Positions 19,910 through 28,993 of a stretch of DNA of 64,000 nucleotides are shown in pieces. The notes under the pieces were generated by a model. The model was not told the DNA's origin. It searched no databases and saw nothing but the letters and a program-made list of their open reading frames with translations. Position 1 is the first letter of the stretch, and each line of letters opens with the position of its first letter. The DNA lies in the NCBI GenBank assembly GCA_039683575.1, contig JBDKRC010000323.1, positions 1 through 64,000 of the forward strand, given 5' to 3'. The translations under genes were made by a program, and so were the position numbers. Origin of the DNA: Armatimonadia bacterium. GTDB taxonomy: Bacteria; Armatimonadota; Zipacnadia; Zipacnadales; UBA11051.

Positions 19910-20092
19910 GAGAAATGCTCCTCCACAAGAAGTGACTCAGTTTAGCATTTTCCGCGCGCGTCGAAAGAGGAAGAATCTCGGAAGGCGCCGCGCGCTGTAC
20001 GAAACTACTCATTGACTTGGCTTGTTAGACAATACAAGATGTTGGCTATTCCGGCCGGAACGTGGTCTGCTCCGGCTGATCGTGAGGCACGT

Positions 20093-23000
20093 ATGCTCCG
20101 CTATCTTTCCCCTCTACTGCTGCTCAGTCTGCTCGTGACGGTACCTCTGATCGCTCAGGAACCGGTTCTGACACCGGTGCCCATCCGTAACGGTGGCTTC
20201 AGTGAAGGCACTGATGCCAGGGGGATACCCGTAGGCTGGTCACAGTATGCGGGCTCACCCGCCGCTAAGTTCGAAGTCGCGCCGCAGAATGGCGCGCTGA
20301 TCATCGACGATCAGGACGCGACGGCGGAGATCGGAGTCGTGCAGTCCTTCGACGTCAAGCCGAACGTGGGCTATGAGGTGAGCGTGGACGTGAAGACCTT
20401 CGAGGGACGCTCAGCAGACGGAGCTTTCCTGCAGTTCCGGTTCCTGCCCTCGGGCCAGTTCACGCAGGTGGACCTCGGAACCGAGTCTACCGACAAGTTC
20501 GAGACAATCACCGCTCGTGGCTATGCGCCCGCGGACACCAGGCAGGCGCAGATCTACCTGTACTCACACCGCGAAACCACCCCGAAAGTGATGGTGGCGA
20601 ACGTGAAGGTAGTCTCCGGCGTCGCCCCGCCCCCACCGCCCCCGCCCGACCCGGTGCCGCCAGTCTATGACAAGCTCAAGGACCTGCACAGCATCATCCC
20701 GCTGGTGCAGGATGGCAAGGCCAACTGCAGCATCGTTGCGGGCAAGAACACCGCTGAAGCTCAGATCATCCAACAGGCCATCGAGAAGCTGACCGGCGTC
20801 AAGGTTCCCATCATCAAGGACAGCGATGCGGGGGCTGCGGTGCCGCTGACCCAGAATCTCATCGTGGTCGGCAACCGCAACACCAACAAGACCTCCAGCG
20901 GGCTGTATGACAACTATTACAGCCTGATAGACCTGAAGTATCCGGGCGCGGGCGGATATGTCATCCGCAGCCTCCACAACCCCTACGGCAACGGCTTCAG
21001 CGCGGTGCTCGTCGGTGGCAGTGACGCCGAGGGCTGTAAGGCTGCTGCTCAGGCGTTTGCACAGGCGAAGAACCTCAAGGCCAGCAAGGGCACACTGTCC
21101 GCCGGCTGGCTCATGGAGACGAAGCTTGGCGCAGGCGTCAAGGTACCGACCGACCTCAAGCAGTTCCTCACCTGGGAAGACTCCAAGGGCTACGGCAACA
21201 CTGGGTACTTCGGCTGGAATAGCATCAGCAAGCGCATGGCCATGTACTACATGACCGGCGACCCGTTCCATGCGCGTGAAGTCATTCGCCTGGCCTTCCC
21301 GGACAAGCAGGCGACCAAGGAACTTGAGGAGATTGACGGCGAGCGCATCGAGAACAAGCACGACCCTCTCGCCGGGCCATACCACTATAACGCGATGATG
21401 CTGATCCTGTACTGGGATCTCATTGAGGAGAGCCCGGTCTTCACGGACGAAGAGCGCCTGAAGGTCACGAACTCCTTCGCCCGACGGCTGGCGCACCCGC
21501 AAGACTTGGGCACCTACAAGCTTGACGCCATCCCCTCCGCCGTTGGCTCGCGCCATGGCCAGTGGTCGGCCATGCAGCTCTATACGTTGGGCCGCTACTT
21601 CAACAAGTACTATCCCTCGCCGCTGTGGGCGCACGCAGAGAGGGCCGGGAAGCTCCATTTTGCGTCTCTACACAAGCATGCGTGGGTCAACGGCGAGGCG
21701 GACAACCTCTACTGGTACAGTACCGGCACGGCTCCGCTGGTGACCTACCTGGTCATGACCGGGGACCGCAAGCCGCTCGAAAATGGCGTGCTGGCACAGC
21801 TTGTCAAGGCCCAGGAGGTGCTGATCTCCGGCCGTGTGCCTGACTGGGCGCTGAACTACGCCGCGCTTGATTATCTGCTCAAGACCGCCTACCTGACCAA
21901 TGACGGGCGCTGGCTGACCTATCTGCAGCGCACGCAGCAGGATACCGATACCTTCCGGTTGGGCCAGTCCTTCTGGCCGGACGAGAGCCTCAAGCCCTCG
22001 CTGCCCAATGATCTGGCGAACAAGTGGACCATCAACCAGATGCCCAAGCCCATGTGGGTTGGGCGCGGCAACGGTTTCACGCTGGACCAGTCGTTTCTCA
22101 ACGGCAGCTTCCGCAGCGCCCCCGATGCCTCCGGCGACTATGTCCTGCTGGACGGCTACAACGGCGCTTCGCGCAACCCGTACCATACCTATGACATCCT
22201 GGAACTGCGCCTGAACGGGCGCACGCTCCTCCAGGGGTATGCCAACCAGGTGCTGACCTCCGCCGATGGGATGGTCTCGCCGATTGTGCCTATGGACGGG
22301 GCCTTGCTCTACAGCGACGTACTGGGGACAACAGCGGTGGCCGTGGGCGAGGTGCCTAAGATGCCCTTCGCCTCATGGCGGCGCACTCTCGCCCAGCGCA
22401 CCGGCAGGTACTGCCTGATCGCCGACGACCTGAGGTTCGGTACTGATAGCCAGAACATGAAGGTGAGCACCAGTTGGGAACTGCAGGGCGGCGCCTGGAA
22501 CGCTAAGGAGCGCGCCATACGCTTCCAGGCCCCCGGTTCCGCAGTGGTGCTGCCCGGCTGGGTCTCCTTCCGCGCTGTCGATATGAAGTGCCGCACCAAG
22601 CCGGAATCGCCGGACATGATGGCGCCCCTGGATTCACTTGGCATAATGATACTGCGCGCCCGTGAAGCCGACTCGCACATCGAGATGCCGTTCAAGGTGA
22701 CGTCCGAGATCACTGGCGAAGCCTTCGTGGACTTCCTGAACTACACCGACCGCGGGGTTGTGCAGTGCTATCTCGACGGCAAGCCCTTGGGCGAGAAGTA
22801 TGACAACTATGCCGAGGGCGTCACCGAGGGCCGTGCACCGCTTGGGAAGGTCACGCTTACGCCGGGCGAGCACGTTCTGCGGGTGACGGCGCTTGAGGCG
22901 CATCCGGGCAACGACAGGATGTTCGTGGGTCTCAAGGGCCTGAGCATCAAGACGTCCCAGGCGATGGCTGAGGGCACCGCGAGCTTCTTTGAACTCCGCC

Positions 23001-24757
23001 CCTCCGACGTGCAGGAAACGACCGGCGGCGGGACGTGCGTAATGAACTGGGTTGGCGGGGTCAAGAAGGACGACCGGCGAGTGGCGTTCTACCTCCTCGG
23101 CCAGAACACCGACAAGGCTCCGGCGCCGTTGGCCTGCCTGCGGATCGCTCCGAACGCGGCGGCTTTGAGCCTGCCGACGCCAGCCGTGGCAGTGGCGGGT
23201 GAATACCAGGGGCTCAAGGGTGAGCTGCTTATTCTGGCGGCTGATCACCTCACAGGCCACAACCTCACCCTCGCCGGCGTCATGGCAGCCGATAAGCCCG
23301 TGAATGTGGACTGGGACTTCGCTGCCGGGGCAATGGACCTGGTCACCACTGCGCCAACCAGGGTCAACTTTGACCTGGAGAAGGCAGACGCCGTGCAGAT
23401 GGACGGCAAGCCTGTGCAGTTGCAGAAGGCGGGTCTGATGGCCGCGCTTGACGTGCCTGCCGGGCGCCACACCCTCGCCGGACTGAAGCCGGCCGGGCTT
23501 GCGAAGCTGCAGGGCGAGCTTGCGAACCTGCTGGCGGCTGGCGCCACGCAGCGACAGAAGGACATAGCCGCCGCCTCGGTAGTCCCCGCTGCGCCGCCCG
23601 CCTGGGCTGCGACGGGCACCGCCAACATCGGCGGCCGCGTCAGCAACCTCATCACCATCAACTCCTCGCAGGGCAAGCTGGTAGCCACTGCGGCAGACAA
23701 CGTGATCCACCTGCTCACGCCGACCGGGCAGGCGGTGCGCCGCTTCAACACTGACGGCAAAATCCGTACGCTGTACTGGTGGGACAAGCCCAAGCTCCTG
23801 CTCGCGGGGTGCGTGGATGAGAAGCTGATTGCCTTCGACGAGCAGGGCAACCGTAAGTGGGTCTTCATCTCCGAGATGGACCCGGCGGTCTACGAGGCCG
23901 CCAAGACGTACTGGTTCAAATCCGCCCCCGGCCATGAGGGCGTCCACGGGCTCTTCGCCGGCCAGTTCCTCGATGGCAAGGAGCAGTGCTTCGTCGGCGG
24001 CGCGTGCACGTTGGAGATCGTTGACGAGAACGGCAAGCTCGTGAAGCGCATGCCTGCCTTCTGGGGCCCGGGGTCGAAGTTCAACCTCATCCCGCGCGCC
24101 GACGGCAGCATTGATCTGCTCTTTGCCAAAGAGCCCACTGACTCGCATTCCATGTACATCCTGAACAACCGCACGATGCAACTGCGCCGCGCCTTCGATG
24201 GCGTGCCCTCCGGGCATACCTACGTCGGCGGCTGGGCCAATATGAGCCGCGACCACATCTTCCACGCCGACCTGGATGCTGATGGCAAGCAGGAGATCGT
24301 CTCGGAGATCAACGGCGCGTGGAACCGCATCACGGTGTGGAATGAGGACGGGGCCCCGCTCTACAACGCGCAGTTCGGCCCTGGCAACCCCATCCCGTAC
24401 CGCAACATGCGCGACGTGGACCTGGTGGACCTGAATGGCGATGGGAAGATCGAGATCATCACGGCAACCTCGCAGGGCCTCGTGGTGGCTCTCAACGCCC
24501 ACTGCGAGAAGGTCTGGTCGACGCGCTTGACCAGCCCCGCGACGGTGTTGAAGACGGTTGCGCAACCCGGCAAGCCCCCTACGATCGTGGTCGCCTGCGA
24601 AAACGGCAGCGTCCTGTCGCTCGACGCTCAGGGCAGCATCCAGAAGGCAGGGCAACTGGGATCAGCCGCGACGAAGATCGAGCTGGTTCAGACGCCCGAG
24701 GGGCCGCTCGTGTTACTCGGCGGCAGCAAGGGTGAGGTGGCGGTCTTCCAGCCGTAG
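20093..24757 (+). CDS. Large secreted modular protein (CBM-like, poly-Pro linker, lyase/heparinase-like core, C-terminal FG-GAP beta-propeller)
   Basis: Signal peptide, IRNGGFSEG, a Pro7 run, and DLDADGKQEI / DLNGDGKIEI calcium-binding loops. Confidence 0.65.
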   Translation: MLRYLSPLLLLSLLVTVPLIAQEPVLTPVPIRNGGFSEGTDARGIPVGWSQYAGSPAAKFEVAPQNGALIIDDQDATAEIGVVQSFDVKPNVGYEVSVDVKTFEGRSADGAFLQFRFLPSGQFTQVDLGTESTDKFETITARGYAPADTRQAQIYLYSHRETTPKVMVANVKVVSGVAPPPPPPPDPVPPVYDKLKDLHSIIPLVQDGKANCSIVAGKNTAEAQIIQQAIEKLTGVKVPIIKDSDAGAAVPLTQNLIVVGNRNTNKTSSGLYDNYYSLIDLKYPGAGGYVIRSLHNPYGNGFSAVLVGGSDAEGCKAAAQAFAQAKNLKASKGTLSAGWLMETKLGAGVKVPTDLKQFLTWEDSKGYGNTGYFGWNSISKRMAMYYMTGDPFHAREVIRLAFPDKQATKELEEIDGERIENKHDPLAGPYHYNAMMLILYWDLIEESPVFTDEERLKVTNSFARRLAHPQDLGTYKLDAIPSAVGSRHGQWSAMQLYTLGRYFNKYYPSPLWAHAERAGKLHFASLHKHAWVNGEADNLYWYSTGTAPLVTYLVMTGDRKPLENGVLAQLVKAQEVLISGRVPDWALNYAALDYLLKTAYLTNDGRWLTYLQRTQQDTDTFRLGQSFWPDESLKPSLPNDLANKWTINQMPKPMWVGRGNGFTLDQSFLNGSFRSAPDASGDYVLLDGYNGASRNPYHTYDILELRLNGRTLLQGYANQVLTSADGMVSPIVPMDGALLYSDVLGTTAVAVGEVPKMPFASWRRTLAQRTGRYCLIADDLRFGTDSQNMKVSTSWELQGGAWNAKERAIRFQAPGSAVVLPGWVSFRAVDMKCRTKPESPDMMAPLDSLGIMILRAREADSHIEMPFKVTSEITGEAFVDFLNYTDRGVVQCYLDGKPLGEKYDNYAEGVTEGRAPLGKVTLTPGEHVLRVTALEAHPGNDRMFVGLKGLSIKTSQAMAEGTASFFELRPSDVQETTGGGTCVMNWVGGVKKDDRRVAFYLLGQNTDKAPAPLACLRIAPNAAALSLPTPAVAVAGEYQGLKGELLILAADHLTGHNLTLAGVMAADKPVNVDWDFAAGAMDLVTTAPTRVNFDLEKADAVQMDGKPVQLQKAGLMAALDVPAGRHTLAGLKPAGLAKLQGELANLLAAGATQRQKDIAAASVVPAAPPAWAATGTANIGGRVSNLITINSSQGKLVATAADNVIHLLTPTGQAVRRFNTDGKIRTLYWWDKPKLLLAGCVDEKLIAFDEQGNRKWVFISEMDPAVYEAAKTYWFKSAPGHEGVHGLFAGQFLDGKEQCFVGGACTLEIVDENGKLVKRMPAFWGPGSKFNLIPRADGSIDLLFAKEPTDSHSMYILNNRTMQLRRAFDGVPSGHTYVGGWANMSRDHIFHADLDADGKQEIVSEINGAWNRITVWNEDGAPLYNAQFGPGNPIPYRNMRDVDLVDLNGDGKIEIITATSQGLVVALNAHCEKVWSTRLTSPATVLKTVAQPGKPPTIVVACENGSVLSLDAQGSIQKAGQLGSAATKIELVQTPEGPLVLLGGSKGEVAVFQP

Positions 24758-24824: not shown

Positions 24825-26366
24825 TTATATTGTGCCGGTCGGCTGCTGCCGCTGCCTGCGCTTGTGCGCCACCACCCGGCATAGCGTGCCGTTGAGGTCC
24901 TTGATGGTCACCGGCTTGGCGAGTACTGCATCGGTCCGGCCGTCATCATTGCCGCCGACCTTCTCGCCCCACCCGGTAAGCAGCACCACTGCTGCCTGCG
25001 GCTGAAGCTTGCGGGCCAGATAGGCCACTTCCCACCCGTCCACATCCGGCATCACGAGGTCCAGCACCAGCGCATCATAGCCATCCTGGTAGCGAATGAG
25101 ACTCATGGCCTGCCGCCCGTCCACGGCCTGGCTCACGCGGTGCCCCAGGCTCTCCAGCGACAGCGCCACCGTCTCTCGCACCCCCGGCTCATCGTCTACG
25201 ACCAGCACATTCAGGTTGCGCAGCAACTCCGGCACATCATCCGGCTTGTGCCGTAGTTCCCGCCTGACGGCCTTGAGGTTCGCCAGCGGCAGCGTGAGGC
25301 TTACTTCCGTGCCGGTGCCCGGCCGACTGCTCAGCGACAACCTGCCGCCAGAGCGGGTGACGATACCATGCACGACACTCAGCCCGAGGCCAAGATGCCC
25401 GGCCGCCTTGGTGCTGAAGAAAGGTTCGCAGGCCTGCCCGAGAGCCTGCTCCGTCATCCCCTGGCCGGTATCGCTGATTCGTATGATGGCTTCTTTGCGC
25501 TCGCACGCTACCGAGACGCAGACTTCGCCGCCCTCCGGCATTGCTTCACGGGCATTGTTGAGCAGGTGGCTGATGATGTCGCGGATATCCGGTGCGCTGG
25601 CCAGGACGTGCAAGTCCTCGGCCGCCTCGATCCTGAGATGCAGCGGGGTTCGTGATCCTGAAGCCGCCTCGGCGTCCGCCCAGCGAGCCTCGGCCGCAGT
25701 GCGCACCAACTGCCCCAAATCCACGAGGTCCTGATCCGGGCTGGGCCGCGAGCCGCTGAAATCCTCGAGTTGCTGGAGAATGCGCGCCCCCTCGCCGGCC
25801 TTCTCATAGATAATCTGCACGCATTCATTGCAGGCGGCGTTGTCACAGTCGGCGCGCGTCATCTCAGCCCGCAACAGGATCGTCGCCAGGAGGTTGTTGA
25901 AATCATGCGCGAAGGAACGGACGAGTTGCCCCTGAGCGTGCAACCTCTCCTTGCGCACCAGCCGTTCCTGCTCCTGGCGGGCGGCTGCTGCCTGCGAGCG
26001 CGCGGTCTTAAGCTGCAGGGCAGCAAGCGCCAGCCGGGCCACCAGGGCAAGCTGCTCCGCCATGCCGGCCGGGCCCTCCCCGTTGTCCGGGCACACTGCC
26101 ACGGCGCGTGACGCTCCCCGCTGACGGTAGGCGAGCGCCCAGGCAGGCCCGTCAGGCGTGTTCACCTGCATGGGGTTTTCAGTCCGAACCTCCGCCGTTG
26201 CCTGTTCCCATTCAGTCAGGACCTCCGGCGAAAGGCGCCGCAACGAGAGTTCCTGGGTATTCCATTCATACAAGGCCCGTTCACTGCCGCTTGAGGTGTA
26301 TGCGAGGCAGTGCCGGGCGCTTGCTTCAGGGCCCCCCGATTCGGTCCGCTCCTCGGTGTTTGCCAT
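24825..26366 (-). CDS. Cytoplasmic hybrid histidine kinase / response regulator
   Basis: H-box AHDFNNLL, N-box LLNNAREA, G boxes DTGQGM and GLGL, REC domain VVDDE...LDLVMP...KP; start codon uncertain. Confidence 0.85.
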   Translation of the reverse strand: MANTEERTESGGPEASARHCLAYTSSGSERALYEWNTQELSLRRLSPEVLTEWEQATAEVRTENPMQVNTPDGPAWALAYRQRGASRAVAVCPDNGEGPAGMAEQLALVARLALAALQLKTARSQAAAARQEQERLVRKERLHAQGQLVRSFAHDFNNLLATILLRAEMTRADCDNAACNECVQIIYEKAGEGARILQQLEDFSGSRPSPDQDLVDLGQLVRTAAEARWADAEAASGSRTPLHLRIEAAEDLHVLASAPDIRDIISHLLNNAREAMPEGGEVCVSVACERKEAIIRISDTGQGMTEQALGQACEPFFSTKAAGHLGLGLSVVHGIVTRSGGRLSLSSRPGTGTEVSLTLPLANLKAVRRELRHKPDDVPELLRNLNVLVVDDEPGVRETVALSLESLGHRVSQAVDGRQAMSLIRYQDGYDALVLDLVMPDVDGWEVAYLARKLQPQAAVVLLTGWGEKVGGNDDGRTDAVLAKPVTIKDLNGTLCRVVAHKRRQRQQPTGTI

Positions 26367-26631
26367 CTCACAATCCTTGTCGCGCCCGGACGCAGACACA
26401 TACGACTGCGTCAAGTCCACGCGTTTCGGCAGCCCCCAGGATGGCGCCGGTCTCACGTCATATGCAATATAGGCCCAGGCTATCAAATGGATGGCAACGG
26501 GGACTCAAGATGGACGCAAGAAGGGCAGGATGAGAGGAAAGAAAGGGGACAAGACTGATCAAGTTCTACGCAAATCACACATGATGCTGCAATGACCGTC
26601 CATGGCGACGGCGGCCCGCGTTTCAGGGCAT

Positions 26632-27162
26632 CTACGCCTCGATAAGCTGTGGTGCGAAAGGCTCCAGATAGTCGCGCCAGTGCGGGTTCTTGGCCGCTGC
26701 CGCAAAGGTCGCAAATGACAGGTAGGGGATGAAACGCGGACGGCGCGGCTTGCGCAGCAGCGCCATGTCGGCCTCCCGCAGCGTCTTACTCCCCTTCTTG
26801 TTGTTGCACTTCATGCAGCAGGCCACGAGGTTGTCCCAGGAGGCGGGCCCACCCTTCTGCCGGGGAATGACATGGTCAATGGTGAGGTCGCGCGAGCTAT
26901 GCCCGCAGTACTGGCAGGTATGACCGTCCCGCGCCAGGACGGCCCGGCGCGAGAGCTTCAGCTCGGGCAGGGGCCGGCGGATGGGGTTGGCCAGACGGAC
27001 CACCGTGGGAAGAAGCAGCTCCGTGTTTGGCCCATGTACCACCTGCGTATCATGCTCAAGTGCAATCGCCTTGCCCAGGCAAAGCAAGGAGACGGCGCGC
27101 CGCCAACTGCAGACATTCAGCGGCTCGTAATTCTGATTCAGCACAAGTACCTGATTGTTCAT
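26632..27162 (-). CDS. Small HNH endonuclease (McrA-like, VLVLNxxYEP N-terminus)
   Basis: RDGHTCQYCG...TIDHVIP...GG..WDNLVACCMKCNNKKG. Confidence 0.92.
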   Translation of the reverse strand: MNNQVLVLNQNYEPLNVCSWRRAVSLLCLGKAIALEHDTQVVHGPNTELLLPTVVRLANPIRRPLPELKLSRRAVLARDGHTCQYCGHSSRDLTIDHVIPRQKGGPASWDNLVACCMKCNNKKGSKTLREADMALLRKPRRPRFIPYLSFATFAAAAKNPHWRDYLEPFAPQLIEA

Positions 27163-27206
27163 GCGACATACACCGTAGAAGAAGGCTTCGGATCATCTAC
27201 CTCAGG

Positions 27207-27244
27207 AAAAAGAAGAACCCGCAGACCTCGAGGGTTGCGGGTTC
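27207..27244 (-). terminator. Attenuator-type intrinsic terminator 5' of the HNH gene
   Basis: Minus strand GAACCCGCAACC-CTCGA-GGTCTGCGGGTTC-TTCTTTTT. Confidence 0.8.
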
Positions 27245-27362
27245 AGAAACACGTTCGCAGGCACAGACAGGACTCGTAAAGCCCGTGTATCCGGAAACAG
27301 GCAGTCCTGTTGAACAGGGCCTGCCGATGCCATAGTTGTTGCTTGCCGAGACGCAGTAACAT
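27243..27362 (-). CDS. Putative 39-aa leader peptide MLLRLGKQQLWHRQALFNRTACFRIHGLYESCLCLRTCF
   Basis: AAGGAAG RBS upstream of the ATG; stop TGA overlaps the terminator 5' arm; contains TTA, CTA, AGG, ATA and CGA codons. Confidence 0.6.
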   Translation of the reverse strand: MLLRLGKQQLWHRQALFNRTACFRIHGLYESCLCLRTCF

Positions 27363-27430
27363 CACGTCTTCCTTTTTGGCAGGGAAGTCAGCGAGGCCGG
27401 CGCCATCGCAGCGGCACCGTGCCCGGCATA

Positions 27431-27460
27431 ATAATACCAAAAACGGCCTGTTCTTGTCAA
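27431..27460 (-). promoter_or_regulatory. Sigma70-type promoter for the leader/HNH unit
   Basis: TTGACA-N18-TATTAT with an extended -10 TG. Confidence 0.7.
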
Positions 27461-27601
27461 AGAGGAGCATGGGCTGGACCGCCCGTATCACCATGCAGGT
27501 ACACCGCCATCAGCGTCGAAGCTGTGTGCGGTTCCTGAACCCTACGGGATCTCCCCCCGAACCTCGGGTTGACCAACTTGAAGCGAAGGAAGTGACAGTT
27601 C

Positions 27602-28993
27602 ATGTCAGACCTTGTTGCCGGGTTAGCCGCCGCCGACATCACGCCTCCCCTCGGCGTTGCCATGGCCGGGTACGGTGCGCGCGACAAGCCCGCTGAGAGC
27701 CTTGTGGACCCACTGCAGGCGCAGGCGTTGGTGCTTGGCTCCGGTGACCGCTATGCTGCAATAGTCTGCACCGATCTCATTGGGCTGCACCCGGATGTAT
27801 ATGTGCCGGTACGCGAACAGGCTGCGACCCTGTGTGGAATTGACCCCCATGCCATCATGGTCTGCTGCAGTCATACCCACTGGGGCCCGATCGTCAGTGG
27901 TGGGCGGTACATGCCCCAGTACCTGCTCGATACCATCTCGGAGGAGTACCGCCTGACGCTCATCAAGACGCTCGCGGGCCTGGTAGTGGAGGCGAAGGCC
28001 AAGGCCGTCCCCGTCACCGCAGGCTACGGGGCAGGCTTTGCCGACCGCATTACCTTCAACCGCCGCAACGTCGGGGATGACTTCAAGACCGAGATGCACC
28101 TGGTGCTTGATCCGCCTGCCGCCCACGCCGCCTCGGCGGAGGGAAACCGCCTCGCACGGGCGTGGCAGCGCGGCGAGCACAAGGGCCCGCGACTGAGCGG
28201 CCCGCTGCCGGAAGTCAGCGGCAAGCGTGTCGGGCCGGCCGACGCCGAAGTCACCGTTCTGCGGCTGCAGAAGACCTCCGGCGAGCCCTTTGCCGGCCTT
28301 GTCAACTTCGCCTGTCACGCCGTGTGCGGTGGCGGCGACTTCTACGGCTTCTCGGCTGACTTCCCCGGCTACGCCCGGAGTGTATTTGCGGACTTAATTG
28401 GCGCGCCGATGCTCTTTGCGGCGGGTGCCTCGGGCGATCAGGTCCCGCGTTGGCGCCAGAATGACGCCCGCCAGCGCGTGGGCAAGTCGATGGGCGCCGA
28501 GGCTGCCCGCGTGTGGCTGCAGACGGATGAGCAGCGCGCCGACCTGCCGCTGGCAACGGCCTATGAAGTCGTCAACCTGCCTCTGAGCGACAAGATCATC
28601 CCGGCAGAGCAGGCTCGCGCGAATCTCGCCGCCAAGCCCAATCCAGAGGGCACCGACGCTGTATACGAACGCTGCATGGTGGAACTCGCCGAAGAGACCG
28701 AGGGGTTGACCGAAGGCTATCCGGCCGAGGTCTGGGCCATGGCGGTTGGTGATCTCGGCATTGTAGGTGTGCCCGGTGAGGTGCTTACGGAGATAGGCCT
28801 GCAGATCAAGCAGCGCTCGCCCTTCGCGCATACCATGGTTGTCAGCCTCGCCAACGGCTGCATCGGGTACCTGCCCACCGATGATGCTGTAGACGAAGGT
28901 GGCTACGAGCCCGGCTGGACTCCGGTCGGCCAGGGCACCGAGAAGATGCTCGTGCAGACCAGCGTATCGCTCCTCCAGCAGCTCCACGGCTAG
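27602..28993 (+). CDS. Neutral/alkaline ceramidase-like zinc hydrolase family protein
   Basis: ADITPP...MAGY, DPL, CSHTHWGP, NRR, NFACHA, SADFPG, PGEV and GYLPT...GGYE. Confidence 0.8.
   Translation: MSDLVAGLAAADITPPLGVAMAGYGARDKPAESLVDPLQAQALVLGSGDRYAAIVCTDLIGLHPDVYVPVREQAATLCGIDPHAIMVCCSHTHWGPIVSGGRYMPQYLLDTISEEYRLTLIKTLAGLVVEAKAKAVPVTAGYGAGFADRITFNRRNVGDDFKTEMHLVLDPPAAHAASAEGNRLARAWQRGEHKGPRLSGPLPEVSGKRVGPADAEVTVLRLQKTSGEPFAGLVNFACHAVCGGGDFYGFSADFPGYARSVFADLIGAPMLFAAGASGDQVPRWRQNDARQRVGKSMGAEAARVWLQTDEQRADLPLATAYEVVNLPLSDKIIPAEQARANLAAKPNPEGTDAVYERCMVELAEETEGLTEGYPAEVWAMAVGDLGIVGVPGEVLTEIGLQIKQRSPFAHTMVVSLANGCIGYLPTDDAVDEGGYEPGWTPVGQGTEKMLVQTSVSLLQQLHG

Follow-up and report, generated by a model that had tools for sequence, protein, structure and literature searches.

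A leader ORF and adjoining terminator suggest translation-gated attenuation of a conserved HNH nuclease gene in Armatimonadota

Why does the gene of an HNH nuclease in an Armatimonadia bacterium lie behind a strong promoter, a short open reading frame (ORF), and a terminator-like hairpin, and what could such a leader sense? The locus is on the minus strand of a 64-kb window, by which is meant the whole stretch of DNA that was analyzed. The original prediction read the arrangement as ribosome-mediated attenuation, with a ribosome stalled near the leader end switching the nuclease on. The claimed architecture, a leader ORF followed by a terminator, recurs before the HNH gene in relatives, and because of this recurrence the arrangement goes beyond chance. 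Most likely, it forms a translation-gated attenuator. Leader-peptide attenuation is a design of known kind; its phylum-wide HNH version has not been described before, and literature searches returned no publication on a leader peptide with an HNH endonuclease and transcription attenuation, nor one on Armatimonadetes with a leader peptide and terminator.

The unit begins with a sigma-70-type promoter (27431–27460, minus strand) composed of TTGACA at 27460–27455, an 18-nt spacer, and TG-n-TATTAT, with TATTAT at 27436–27431. The promoter had been proposed from the letters as TTGACA-N18-TATTAT; it is present, matches 11 of 12 consensus positions, and is the sole promoter-like site in 26000–28200 (2.2 kb), a region for which shuffled sequence yields 0.3 sites on average. 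Transcription is predicted to start near 27424. A Shine-Dalgarno-like AAGGAAG, read directly at 27368–27374 (minus strand), precedes by 5 nt the ATG (27362) of a leader ORF of 39 codons plus TGA (27243–27362, minus strand; TGA at 27245–27243). The ORF listing also offers an 83-aa version of the leader, whose start is upstream of the promoter. Following the leader is the predicted intrinsic terminator (27207–27244, minus strand), a hairpin at 27244–27215 and then the U-tract UUCUUUUU at 27214–27207. The first two bases of the hairpin are the GA of the leader TGA, which gives a stop-to-stem distance of −2 nt. Its assignment as an intrinsic terminator is by the G+C-rich hairpin and the immediate U-run; the hairpin folds at −19.5 kcal/mol (z = −3.2), and none of 200 shuffles folds as well. 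A simple terminator scan, with a loop limit of 8, misses this hairpin. The HNH gene (26632–27162, minus strand; ATG at 27162, 176 aa) begins 45 nt past the terminator, across a spacer of 44 nt (27163–27206), and its product scores above the Pfam cut-offs. The ribosome-binding site, the 39-codon ORF, the hairpin starting in the TGA with its U-tract, and the HNH gene 45 nt further on had all been claimed beforehand, and each is where it was placed.

The nuclease gene appears to depend on the leader promoter. An HNH promoter downstream of the hairpin, which the original prediction named as an observation against itself, was found by consensus scan neither in the window nor in any of 67 related loci at a score of at least 10/12 (terminator-to-gene interval of 16–117 nt). 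A comparable promoter with a score of at least 10/12 lies 5′ of the leader in 44 of the 67 loci, the windows scanned upstream of the leader and the terminator-to-gene intervals being of unequal sizes. In the spacer at 27163–27206 there is no convincing promoter and no Shine-Dalgarno site. Its top promoter-like match reaches only 6/12, the score of a weak −10-like TACGGT at 27177–27172, 9 nt before the HNH ATG and with no −35. This element is placed like the −10-like boxes before leaderless-looking Chloroflexota orthologues. Among the loci of genus g12 that are without a leader, L027 and L121 have a consensus promoter directly before HNH (TTGACT-17-TACGAT/TAGGAT), L030 has an HNH-adjacent promoter seen by eye, and none scored in L122. 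Metatranscriptome contigs from three runs of one study cover only the HNH coding region (26631–27164) and do not reach into the leader. One of them stops 2 nt short of the HNH ATG and could be read as a separate leaderless HNH transcript, contigs being unable to show transcript ends.

Across relatives, leader and terminator together are supported as a conserved transcription unit before the HNH gene. A strict terminator precedes HNH at 54 of 81 Armatimonadota loci vs 3 of 72 loci of other phyla; the remaining 27 Armatimonadota loci fail the strict test, and a few lineages are entirely without a leader. The terminator arms and U-run are kept in close relatives. These conclusions rest on the strict finder with its control in other phyla and on a motif-anchored test, described below. 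Because the genomes compared share ancestry, the counts make the support look more independent than it is.

The leader is most likely translated, as its open frame, stop placement, fixed length, and synonymous Arg codons support. The leader frame is open in relatives and its start and stop positions are kept without indels; even pairs only 52–75% identical in DNA have ORFs of identical length. Many related leaders have no Shine-Dalgarno site. Across relatives the peptide varies from 25 to 66 residues, and outside one short motif there is no purifying selection, with changes spread evenly over the three codon positions and most of them non-synonymous. No Pfam family matches the leader peptide. 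In other families a related peptide, R-L-L-[ED]-D-S-[FL]..., is encoded by differing synonymous codons. Several features named in the original prediction fare differently in this comparison. The codons TTA, CTA, AGG, ATA, and CGA, which had been claimed to be rare, are all present in the leader and all rare in its own genome: among Leu codons TTA makes up 0.4% and CTA 2.8%, AGG and CGA each account for 6.5% of the Arg codons, and 11% of the Ile codons are ATA. As a sensing feature, only ATA gains from the relatives, where it is conserved; TTA, CTA, AGG, and CGA are not. The four Cys residues are likewise present but not conserved, and since several related leaders have none, limitation for cysteine is not supported as the signal. 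The internal hairpin (27325–27300) can be seen in the window but is not conserved in relatives.

The conserved element is TTC CGG ATA (27288–27296, minus strand), encoding F23-R24-I25, with the Ile written as the rare ATA. Phe and Ile are the sole invariant columns among 26 aligned leaders, and the usual form in the window's order is F-R-I-R. All 28 loci write the motif Ile as ATA, although the search also admitted ATC and ATT, vs 13 of 101 Ile codons in the HNH genes, and ATA therefore appears to be under selection at this position. The motif Arg is written CGG, CGC, or AGG among relatives, and the base C following ATA is also conserved at the nucleotide level. TTY-NNN-ATA occurs in 21 of 30 order-level loci, with that frame open in all 21. 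The motif-anchored test took 28 loci with F-x-I located 40–75 nt before a terminator. When read in the motif frame, 26 of the 28 loci have their first stop between −20 and +14 nt relative to the beginning of the stem, vs 3 and 6 of 28 in the other frames. All 28 keep at least 20 open codons upstream in the motif frame, vs 18 and 17 loci in the other two. The overlap of ORF stop and terminator that the original prediction proposed to look for in orthologues is thus a conserved placement.

The motif is 49–66 nt from the terminator in 26 order-level loci and 75 nt in L144 and L145, which puts it 11–24 codons ahead of the leader stop and not at the leader end, where the last residues and the stop codon vary among relatives. 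The conserved peptide stretch is ~10–15 residues with an abrupt end at F-R-I-R (then P in family f6), and the sequence downstream is free to vary. Each leader has a single conserved ATA codon, with two in some f6 leaders. A search of the own genome for similar leaders gave 203 candidate F-x-I(ATA) frames, six of which pass the terminator filter. Among these only the HNH leader appears leader-like; close inspection covered it and C149, which is apparently inside a coding sequence. Hairpins around the motif differ in register, with the motif in the loop in g1 and g4 and in the 3′ strand in f6, and one compensatory change is seen (CCGG/CCGG in f6 vs CAGG/CCUG in L020). A conserved motif hairpin was rejected on account of the differing register between families. 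The motif may act as the sensing element, a minor Ile codon combined with a conserved nascent peptide that is slow to translate or prone to arrest.

The geometry of stop codon and hairpin allows the claimed blocking of the terminator by a ribosome near the leader end. With the P site 0, 1, 2, 3, 4, and 5 codons before the stop, the modeled terminator probability in the window is 0.0, 0.0, 0.0, 0.1, 0.6, and 1.0, respectively. The naked leader folds the terminator with a mean probability of 0.83, and with a ribosome parked on the motif the value is 0.82. The stop-to-stem distance is −17 to +13 nt in 26 order-level loci and −24 nt in L144; the stop is inside the hairpin in L002, L017, L023, and L144, and the ORF runs through the terminator in L145. 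For family f6, with the stop 6–12 nt before the stem, a ribosome at the stop would hardly touch the hairpin under the footprint assumption used. No competing fold is predicted in the window. In the 115 nt searched upstream, the best complement of the 5′ arm in the window has −7.1 kcal/mol (z = +1.5), and across loci the mean z for an antiterminator is −0.65, with 11 of 62 at p ≤ 0.05, mostly in f6. The folding model predicts no structure switch with the ribosome on the motif, and folding of the whole leader is not unusual (z = −1.1). With an E limit of 10, Rfam returned no credible match for 26000–28200, the entries listed being snoRNA and miRNA noise, and five related leaders had none at gathering score.

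The gene behind the leader encodes an HNH nuclease, as judged by Pfam scores (HNH_5, PF14279, 56.9 bits; HNH, PF01844, 53.3 bits; cut-offs 27.5 and 21.4) and by catalytic and zinc-binding residues. The invariant residues in 53 sequences are C83, C86, D96, H97, N111, C116, C119, and N120. Three parts are distinguished in the protein: a PLMP-like domain at ~3–66, a Cas9/IscB-type HNH domain at ~62–143, and a conserved C-terminal tail. In the AF2 model (pLDDT 88.6), residues 3–66 superpose on 9k2z_A 2–52 (IscB PLMP) with an rmsd of 1.7 Å over 51 aligned residues, 20% identity, and a Z of 6.5, a score under 8 that can reflect a common arrangement. Foldseek gives a probability of 0.99 to IsrB 8dmb_P, a structure without an HNH domain, and no Pfam entry matches the PLMP-like N-terminal part at E ≤ 0.1. 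The fold of the HNH domain is closest to NbaCas9, YnpsCas9, Cas9d, and IscB (Z 8.9–10.0), and among NCBIfam models the HNH region of IscB scores highest (NF040563; 73.8 bits, residues 71–131 vs model positions 183–243). Identity as a full IscB was rejected, as 73.8 bits is far under the 175 cut-off and the protein has only 176 residues. The gene is single-copy in its own genome and occurs in 40 of 41 genomes sampled in the order and 276 of 301 in the phylum; on this sampling, it is a near-universal single-copy gene of Armatimonadota.

A relative of the nuclease has a reported tie to translation. The original prediction had drawn a parallel to Anabaena, and the parallel is stronger than claimed: the window HNH shares 43% identity (157 columns, E 4e-37) with the HNH that immediately precedes the tRNA array on pCC7120delta and that by its position is all8564. 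According to PMC8421152 and PMC10272220 (Table 1), all8564 is induced by chloramphenicol and de-repressed without TrcR. Both papers describe TrcR in Anabaena PCC 7120 as repressing the HNH gene all8564 together with the trn tRNA operon. Chromosomal HNH orthologues of Nostocales have TrcR-operator-like tandem repeats. The plasmid copy has 24 tRNA genes directly downstream; the 64-kb window has none. All8564 and the window gene share a homologous nuclease with both domains and a control tied, in the window putatively, to the state of translation, whereas all8564 is governed by a DNA-binding repressor at the promoter and is plasmid-borne, beside a tRNA array.

In the proposed mechanism, transcription would start at the strong promoter and by default halt at the hairpin and U-tract, 45 nt before HNH. 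The leader would be translated to a stop at the hairpin foot or, in relatives, up to 13 nt before the stem, within it, or beyond it. Since the stop is at the hairpin foot, a ribosome positioned over the final three or four leader codons would keep the hairpin's 5′ arm inside its mRNA channel, and with the arm held, RNA polymerase would read through into HNH. If the hairpin is blocked in this way by the ribosome, HNH mRNA would be finished only when a ribosome closely trails the polymerase to the leader end. Timely arrival would be decided by the speed at which the ribosome clears F-R-I(ATA)-R. Given a translation-gated attenuator, slow decoding of the motif leading to termination and less HNH is slightly favored. 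The full explanation, direction included, is about evenly balanced between right and wrong because the direction is its least certain part. The favored direction is opposite to the expectation from the Anabaena relative.

The same parts could serve the opposite logic, as the original prediction had it; we consider this unlikely, if less so than the other alternatives. Translation stress would make the ribosome linger on the last leader codons, the hairpin would stay open, and the nuclease would be induced. Antibiotics, damaged or scarce tRNA, or a shortage of release factor that slows elongation or termination are the stresses in question. This version shares its blocking geometry with the favored explanation. 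Stress-sensing leader peptides such as PA5471.1-armZ, ermK, and bmrB turn on upon ribosome stalling. The homologous Anabaena tRNA-array HNH is chloramphenicol-induced and part of the TrcR translation-stress regulon, and Nostocales chromosomal orthologues have the TrcR-operator-like repeats. However, the end of the leader, where the ribosome would linger, is unconserved in its last residues, stop codon, and Cys. The sole conserved element lies 11–24 codons before the stop, and in the model a stall there leaves the terminator intact. A globally slowed ribosome would, moreover, come late unless the polymerase waits.

Two further alternatives dispense with gating by a ribosome. It is improbable that the leader is simply a small protein gene with an ordinary terminator, in which case nothing would be sensed and the peptide would work in trans, perhaps by partnering or inhibiting the nuclease. 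Expression of HNH would then come from steady leakage past the terminator or from its own weak promoter. A terminator right after a stop is the look of any gene end, the peptide does have a conserved 10–15-residue motif, and the RNA contigs are confined to the HNH coding region, one ending 2 nt before the ATG. Against this, several relatives have a leader that stops within the hairpin or reads on through it, and there translation and hairpin formation must collide. The peptide is also unconstrained outside the motif at 25 to 66 residues, it lacks a Pfam family, and the 16–117 nt between terminator and gene hold no promoter at 67 loci. More improbable still is that the conserved stretch acts as RNA or DNA without translation, as a regulator site or riboswitch-like sensor. 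A candidate regulator would be the nuclease's own PLMP-like domain, since in IsrB/IscB this domain grips the RNA hairpin immediately 5′ of its own gene. PLMP domains bind the terminal hairpins of the omega RNA, by the Shine-Dalgarno site (PMC9581776 and PMC9640706). Conservation of ATA and the next C as nucleotides would fit such a site, as would the small hairpins that contain the motif in some families, where one compensatory change is seen. Yet the register of the motif hairpin differs between families (loop in g1 and g4, 3′ strand in f6), the whole leader is not unusually structured (z = −1.1), no Rfam match was obtained in the window or five related leaders, and the reading-frame statistics and synonymous Arg codons fit coding.

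A more specific reading of the translation-gated attenuator is that the leader is a nascent-peptide and minor-codon (AUA) sensor of the translation machinery, and that the nuclease is a housekeeping ribosome- or tRNA-directed enzyme made of a free-standing PLMP (IF3-N-like) domain and HNH. We regard this as speculative and probably incorrect in full. Such a protein, with the same two modules as in IscB, would be kept by most Armatimonadota, Chloroflexota, and Cyanobacteria. If the AUA-sensor reading is true, the leader peptide and Anabaena TrcR would be two unrelated controls that tie one nuclease family to translation stress, and the family would point to an undescribed nuclease of RNA quality control or repair. 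The leader offers an experimental handle on the role of the PLMP-like plus HNH protein and on its possible tie to the health of translation, a tie suggested by the Anabaena relative.

The protein resembles IscB, IsrB, and early Cas9 in its Cas9/IscB-type HNH and, tentatively, in its PLMP-like N-terminal fold, a likeness of protein only. Its 176 residues have no RuvC domain, bridge helix, or TI domain, and unlike those of IscB/IsrB the gene is single-copy, vertically kept, and outside any transposon, with no omega-like RNA detected. The leader peptide itself recalls the nascent-chain arrest peptides SecM, MifM, VemP, and TnaC, with ~10–15 conserved residues, an abrupt end (F-R-I-R), and free sequence downstream. 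In contrast to these, it has no link to secretion or a metabolite, and its arrest is putative. The 11–24 codons between motif and stop make a TnaC-like arrest at the stop codon unlikely.

To our knowledge, nearly all leader-peptide attenuators described so far come from a few well-studied phyla, where they precede genes for amino acids, pyrimidines, or antibiotic resistance. The HNH leader stands apart in being conserved across a poorly studied phylum, in a target nuclease kept by nearly every member, and in having a conserved peptide and rare-codon motif and no codon runs. PA5471.1-armZ of Pseudomonas, ermK, and bmrB-bmrCD likewise have a short ORF and terminator before a gene linked to translation trouble. 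Those systems switch by alternative RNA pairing upon a stall inside the leader, whereas no alternative pairing is predicted here except for a candidate in family f6. The attenuators of amino-acid operons, trpL, hisL, leuL, ilvL, and pheL, resemble this locus in their promoter, in a short leader that is translated and followed by an intrinsic terminator, and in a limiting or rare codon at which sensing probably takes place. Here, however, there are no codon runs for one amino acid, the regulated gene is not biosynthetic, the stop abuts the terminator, and neither the window nor most relatives have a 2:3 antiterminator. A classical trp-type attenuator was ruled out by the missing antiterminator and missing codon run.

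A close likeness is to the pyrE (rph-pyrE) and pyrBI attenuators of E. coli, which control pyrimidine genes by sensing the tightness of transcription-translation coupling. Their upstream ORF stops just short of an intrinsic terminator, within it, or past it, and they lack an antiterminator. The polymerase reads through only with a ribosome close behind that prevents hairpin formation, and UTP is sensed via polymerase pausing at U-rich tracts. For pyrE, a stop placed ~10 nt ahead of the hairpin is enough, a distance that would also accommodate family f6. The window shares with pyrE and pyrBI an ORF that ends at the terminator (in relatives also within or past it), no predicted antiterminator, and the probable occlusion of the hairpin by a ribosome; it differs in the conserved peptide and codon motif within the ORF and in having a nuclease as the target. 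The HNH leader would be a clean natural case, outside E. coli, of a ribosome at a stop codon suppressing the adjacent terminator.

The HNH nuclease gene of the window lies on the minus strand behind a promoter, a short open reading frame and a terminator hairpin. The promoter, TTGACA-18-TATTAT (27460-27431), agrees with the consensus at 11 of 12 positions, carries TG ahead of its -10 element, and is the sole promoter-like site within 2.2 kb in a consensus scan. Downstream are AAGGAAG (27374-27368), 5′ of the leader start codon; a leader ORF of 39 codons, from the ATG at 27362 to the TGA at 27245-27243; and a terminator hairpin (27244-27215; -19.5 kcal/mol, z = -3.2, 0/200 shuffles equally stable) whose first two bases are the G and A of the leader TGA and which is directly followed by a UUCUUUUU run. 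The HNH ORF, also recognized by a profile match, starts at 27162, 45 nt past the terminator, and its start is fixed by an in-frame stop just 5′ of it. Each of these parts, ribosome-binding site included, had been named in the original prediction and is present on the minus strand. The leader codons it called rare are so in this genome of 63.5% G+C, where TTA accounts for 0.4%, CTA for 2.8%, AGG and CGA for 6.5% each, and ATA for 11% of their amino-acid families. Rfam has no family at the leader locus. Around the HNH gene are a hybrid histidine kinase/response regulator ORF (24825-26486, minus strand), which follows it after 145 nt in the same orientation; a 1581-aa ORF (20012-24757, plus strand); and a divergent ORF (27602-28993, plus strand) with a weak ceramidase-like match below the cut-off.

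The leader is conserved around a short peptide motif, F-R-I-R, with ATA as the isoleucine codon (TTC CGG ATA, 27288-27296 in the window). Among the upstream regions of 30 HNH orthologues from the order, TTY-NNN-ATA occurs 100-200 nt 5′ of the start codon in 21, all with the motif-defined frame open on both sides; it is absent from the other nine, one of which offers just 38 nt. A motif-anchored test drew on 77 Armatimonadota upstream regions (the set later grew to 85), and in 28 of these F-x-I is sited 40-75 nt ahead of a terminator hairpin. Within these related genomes, whose counts are not independent, the first stop in the motif frame falls within -20 to +14 nt of the stem's first base at 26/28 loci, as against 3/28 and 6/28 in the other frames, bearing out in orthologues the stop-at-terminator arrangement that the original prediction had proposed to look for. 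Because the frame is set by the motif, this comparison is free of ORF-choice bias. Upstream, 20 or more open codons are present at all 28 loci in the motif frame, and at 18 and 17 in the others. From F-R-I(ATA)-R it is 49-66 nt to the terminator and 11-24 codons to the stop in order-level loci. In the peptide alignment F and I are the sole invariant columns, preceded by about 10 partly conserved residues, (R)(R/Q)A[ILM]xxxx[PAH][GEHY]; past I-R there is no conservation save a P-x-x-P in one family, f6. In L145 (family f24) the leader ORF contains x-I(ATA) in frame twice, as F-R-I-R and as V-W-I-H. Upstream regions of the Chloroflexota and cyanobacterial orthologues have no comparable leader, and a genome-wide search for motif plus terminator finds the leader only at the HNH gene in the window genome.

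Several features are consistent with translation of the leader. Pairs of leaders at 75%, 73%, 72%, and 52% DNA identity have equal ORF lengths and zero indels, and their flanks differ by 1-3 nt in length. Outside the motif, substitutions fall equally on all three codon positions, and most of them are non-synonymous. By these alignments, selection acts on the frame and length of the leader and leaves the sequence outside the motif free, as is usual for regulatory leaders. The motif isoleucine is ATA at all 28 loci in a search that also permitted ATC and ATT; ATA makes up 11% of isoleucine codons in long ORFs of the window genome and 13/101 in the HNH genes of motif loci, and ATC is frequent at other isoleucine positions of the same leaders. 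The ATA enrichment is confined to the order of the window and a few further lineages, rather than phylum-wide, and the motif arginines use CGG, CGC, or, in L145, AGG. Recognizably related peptides, such as R-L-L-[ED]-D-S-[FL]-x-x-[RY] or V-W-D-S-Y-F, occur in further families of the phylum, where the synonymous codons vary and the peptide likewise ends at the terminator. Many leaders lack a Shine-Dalgarno site. Six loci of genus g4 (L007, L009, L010, L013-L015) share a conserved TGGAGGT between positions -22 and -16 relative to the HNH start, 13-15 nt ahead of the start codon and unusually distant for a Shine-Dalgarno site.

The window genome has one copy of the HNH protein, which is present in 40/41 genomes sampled within the order and 276/301 across the phylum (E <= 1e-30), including 223/238 of at least 90% completeness. 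Relatives at 44-55% identity are frequent in Chloroflexota, Cyanobacteria, Melainabacteria, Acidobacteriota, and others, a pattern search confirming 597/600 among the matches listed. Given its single copy and near-universal distribution, the gene is a vertically inherited core gene and no homing element. All 53 sequences compared keep the zinc-binding cysteines and the catalytic D-H...N...N residues unchanged. In an AlphaFold model (pLDDT 88.6), a beta-beta-alpha-beta-beta domain at the N terminus precedes the HNH domain, the latter nearest in structure comparison to those of NbaCas9, YnpsCas9, Cas9d, and IscB (Z 8.9-10.0). Residues 3-66 of the model superpose on the PLMP domain of IscB (9k2z_A residues 2-52; rmsd 1.7 Å) with Z 6.5, a modest value, so the domain is termed PLMP-like with no claim of membership; Foldseek also matches the protein to IsrB, which has no HNH domain. 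The protein combines a PLMP-like module with an HNH module of the Cas9/IscB type, the module pair of IscB without a counterpart of the RuvC part, and this two-module form is a single-copy core gene in several phyla. The passages on IscB and IsrB in PMC9581776 and PMC9640706 make no mention of stand-alone proteins of this kind.

A cyanobacterial relative may connect the family to translation stress. The window protein is 43% identical over both domains (E 4e-37) to an HNH protein of Anabaena plasmid pCC7120delta, whose gene precedes 24 same-strand tRNA genes by 202 nt and is, by its position, all8564. The stimuli that induce all8564 are described as those that induce the tRNA operon, chloramphenicol among them (PMC8421152, sections 22, 23), and in a mutant of the repressor gene trcR all8564 rises 17-fold and another HNH gene, alr0856, 7-fold (PMC10272220, Table 1). 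Chromosomal orthologues in Nostocales (L057, L062, L064) carry, 36 nt ahead of the HNH start, two tandem 9-nt repeats fitting the published TrcR signature with 1-nt spacing; the published spacing is 2-3 nt. Such tandem repeats occur at 3/11 cyanobacterial and 0/69 other loci. Partial copies are seen at L088, L058, and L060. By analogy with all8564 and from these repeats, the nuclease family may plausibly be tied to the state of translation; the identity of any signal read by the leader does not follow from this.

Promoter placement supports a single transcription unit for leader and nuclease. Scored out of 12 with an added spacer bonus, a promoter of 10 or more stands upstream of the leader at 44/67 loci, and the same consensus scan finds none at this threshold between terminator and HNH start codon at any of the 67, where the original prediction would have been contradicted by a promoter belonging to the HNH gene itself. 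Best scores average 9.8 and 5.8, respectively, a contrast somewhat inflated by the larger upstream search window. A strict terminator, defined by 7 or more pairs without interruption (5 or more being G-C) and a tract with 5 or more U in 8, lies 12-150 nt ahead of the HNH gene at 54/81 Armatimonadota loci versus 3/72 from other phyla, and several of the 27 Armatimonadota loci that fail have bulged stems or weaker U-runs. A looser automatic tally of terminator plus ORF gives 55/76 loci and 26/33 families, with about one third false positives (23/72 in the other-phyla control) and some hairpins mis-placed. The leader is dispensable, since some lineages do without it: in genus g12 (L027, L030, L121, L122) it is absent, and a consensus promoter stands immediately ahead of the HNH gene in L027, L121, and, by eye, L030, with none scored in L122; at L128 and L137 the leader is also absent and the upstream gene terminates just ahead of the HNH gene. 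Three f6 loci (L008, L031, L113) share a conserved purine-rich tract, about 30 nt long (GAAAGGCGGGRTCATCAA..AAGAGG), between terminator and HNH start. At L100 and L101 (Acidobacteriota), promoters followed by hairpin-rich leaders with U-runs are visible by eye upstream of the HNH orthologues and may represent another leader type.

There is a small chance that the window also produces a separate, leaderless HNH transcript. Metatranscriptome contigs (three runs of one study; 95-99% identity) cover the HNH coding region only, 26631-27164, one of them stopping at 27164, 2 nt ahead of the HNH ATG, and a weak -10-like TACGGT (27177-27172, minus strand) lies 9 nt ahead of that ATG. However, TACGGT has no -35 element, assembled contigs carry no information on RNA ends, and both outer contig limits coincide with the limits of conserved coding sequence, so that strain variation is a simple explanation. 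In Chloroflexota (L037, L040, L041, L043, L046, L052-L055), a -10-like TAnnnT after TGC is seen by eye in the last 25 nt before the ATG, 8-9 nt ahead of the HNH start codon, which suggests that HNH mRNAs of these lineages are leaderless.

The terminator is predicted to form readily on the naked leader, where its six outer pairs have a mean probability of 0.83 over the 28 loci and 0.95 in the window. With a ribosome parked on F-R-I the folding model gives 0.82 over the loci and 0.99 in the window. A trp-like antiterminator switch is unsupported, because a complement of the terminator 5′ arm is rare (significant in 11/62 loci, mostly f6; none significant upstream in the window leader) and folding is unaltered by a ribosome on the motif. 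The end of the leader behaves differently: sliding the footprint along the window leader gives terminator probabilities of 0.0, 0.0, 0.0, and 0.1 with the P site 0-3 codons from the stop, and little effect on the hairpin from 5 codons before the stop onward. At L002, L017, L023, and L144 the leader stop lies inside the hairpin, and the L145 ORF passes the terminator and reaches the HNH start region without a stop; a ribosome finishing these leaders must therefore open the hairpin. Under this model, termination is most likely the default, and read-through would require that a ribosome closely trail the polymerase where the leader ends. F-R-I(ATA)-R would then be a point of possible ribosome delay, whether through the minor tRNA that reads AUA or through the nascent peptide, and delay there would let the terminator form. 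The original prediction read the same layout in the opposite sense, with slow ribosomes lingering at the leader end and inducing the HNH gene; this reading draws on identical parts and may apply. In f6 the stop is 6-12 nt ahead of the stem and the footprint model gives little direct blocking; there the upstream complement, spelled by the codons R-Q/R-R-A, may do the job after the ribosome melts its partner.

Attenuation by a leader peptide is already known, and we rate its use at an HNH gene as having no published precedent that we found: full-text literature searches yielded no leader peptide or attenuator ahead of an HNH gene, and none in Armatimonadetes, and Rfam no model for an HNH leader. 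The abrupt end of peptide conservation after F-R-I-R is shared with arrest peptides, whose conservation likewise breaks off at one point. The layout of the window leader matches the attenuator logic of E. coli pyrE and pyrBI, where a ribosome near the end of the leader opposes the terminator hairpin.
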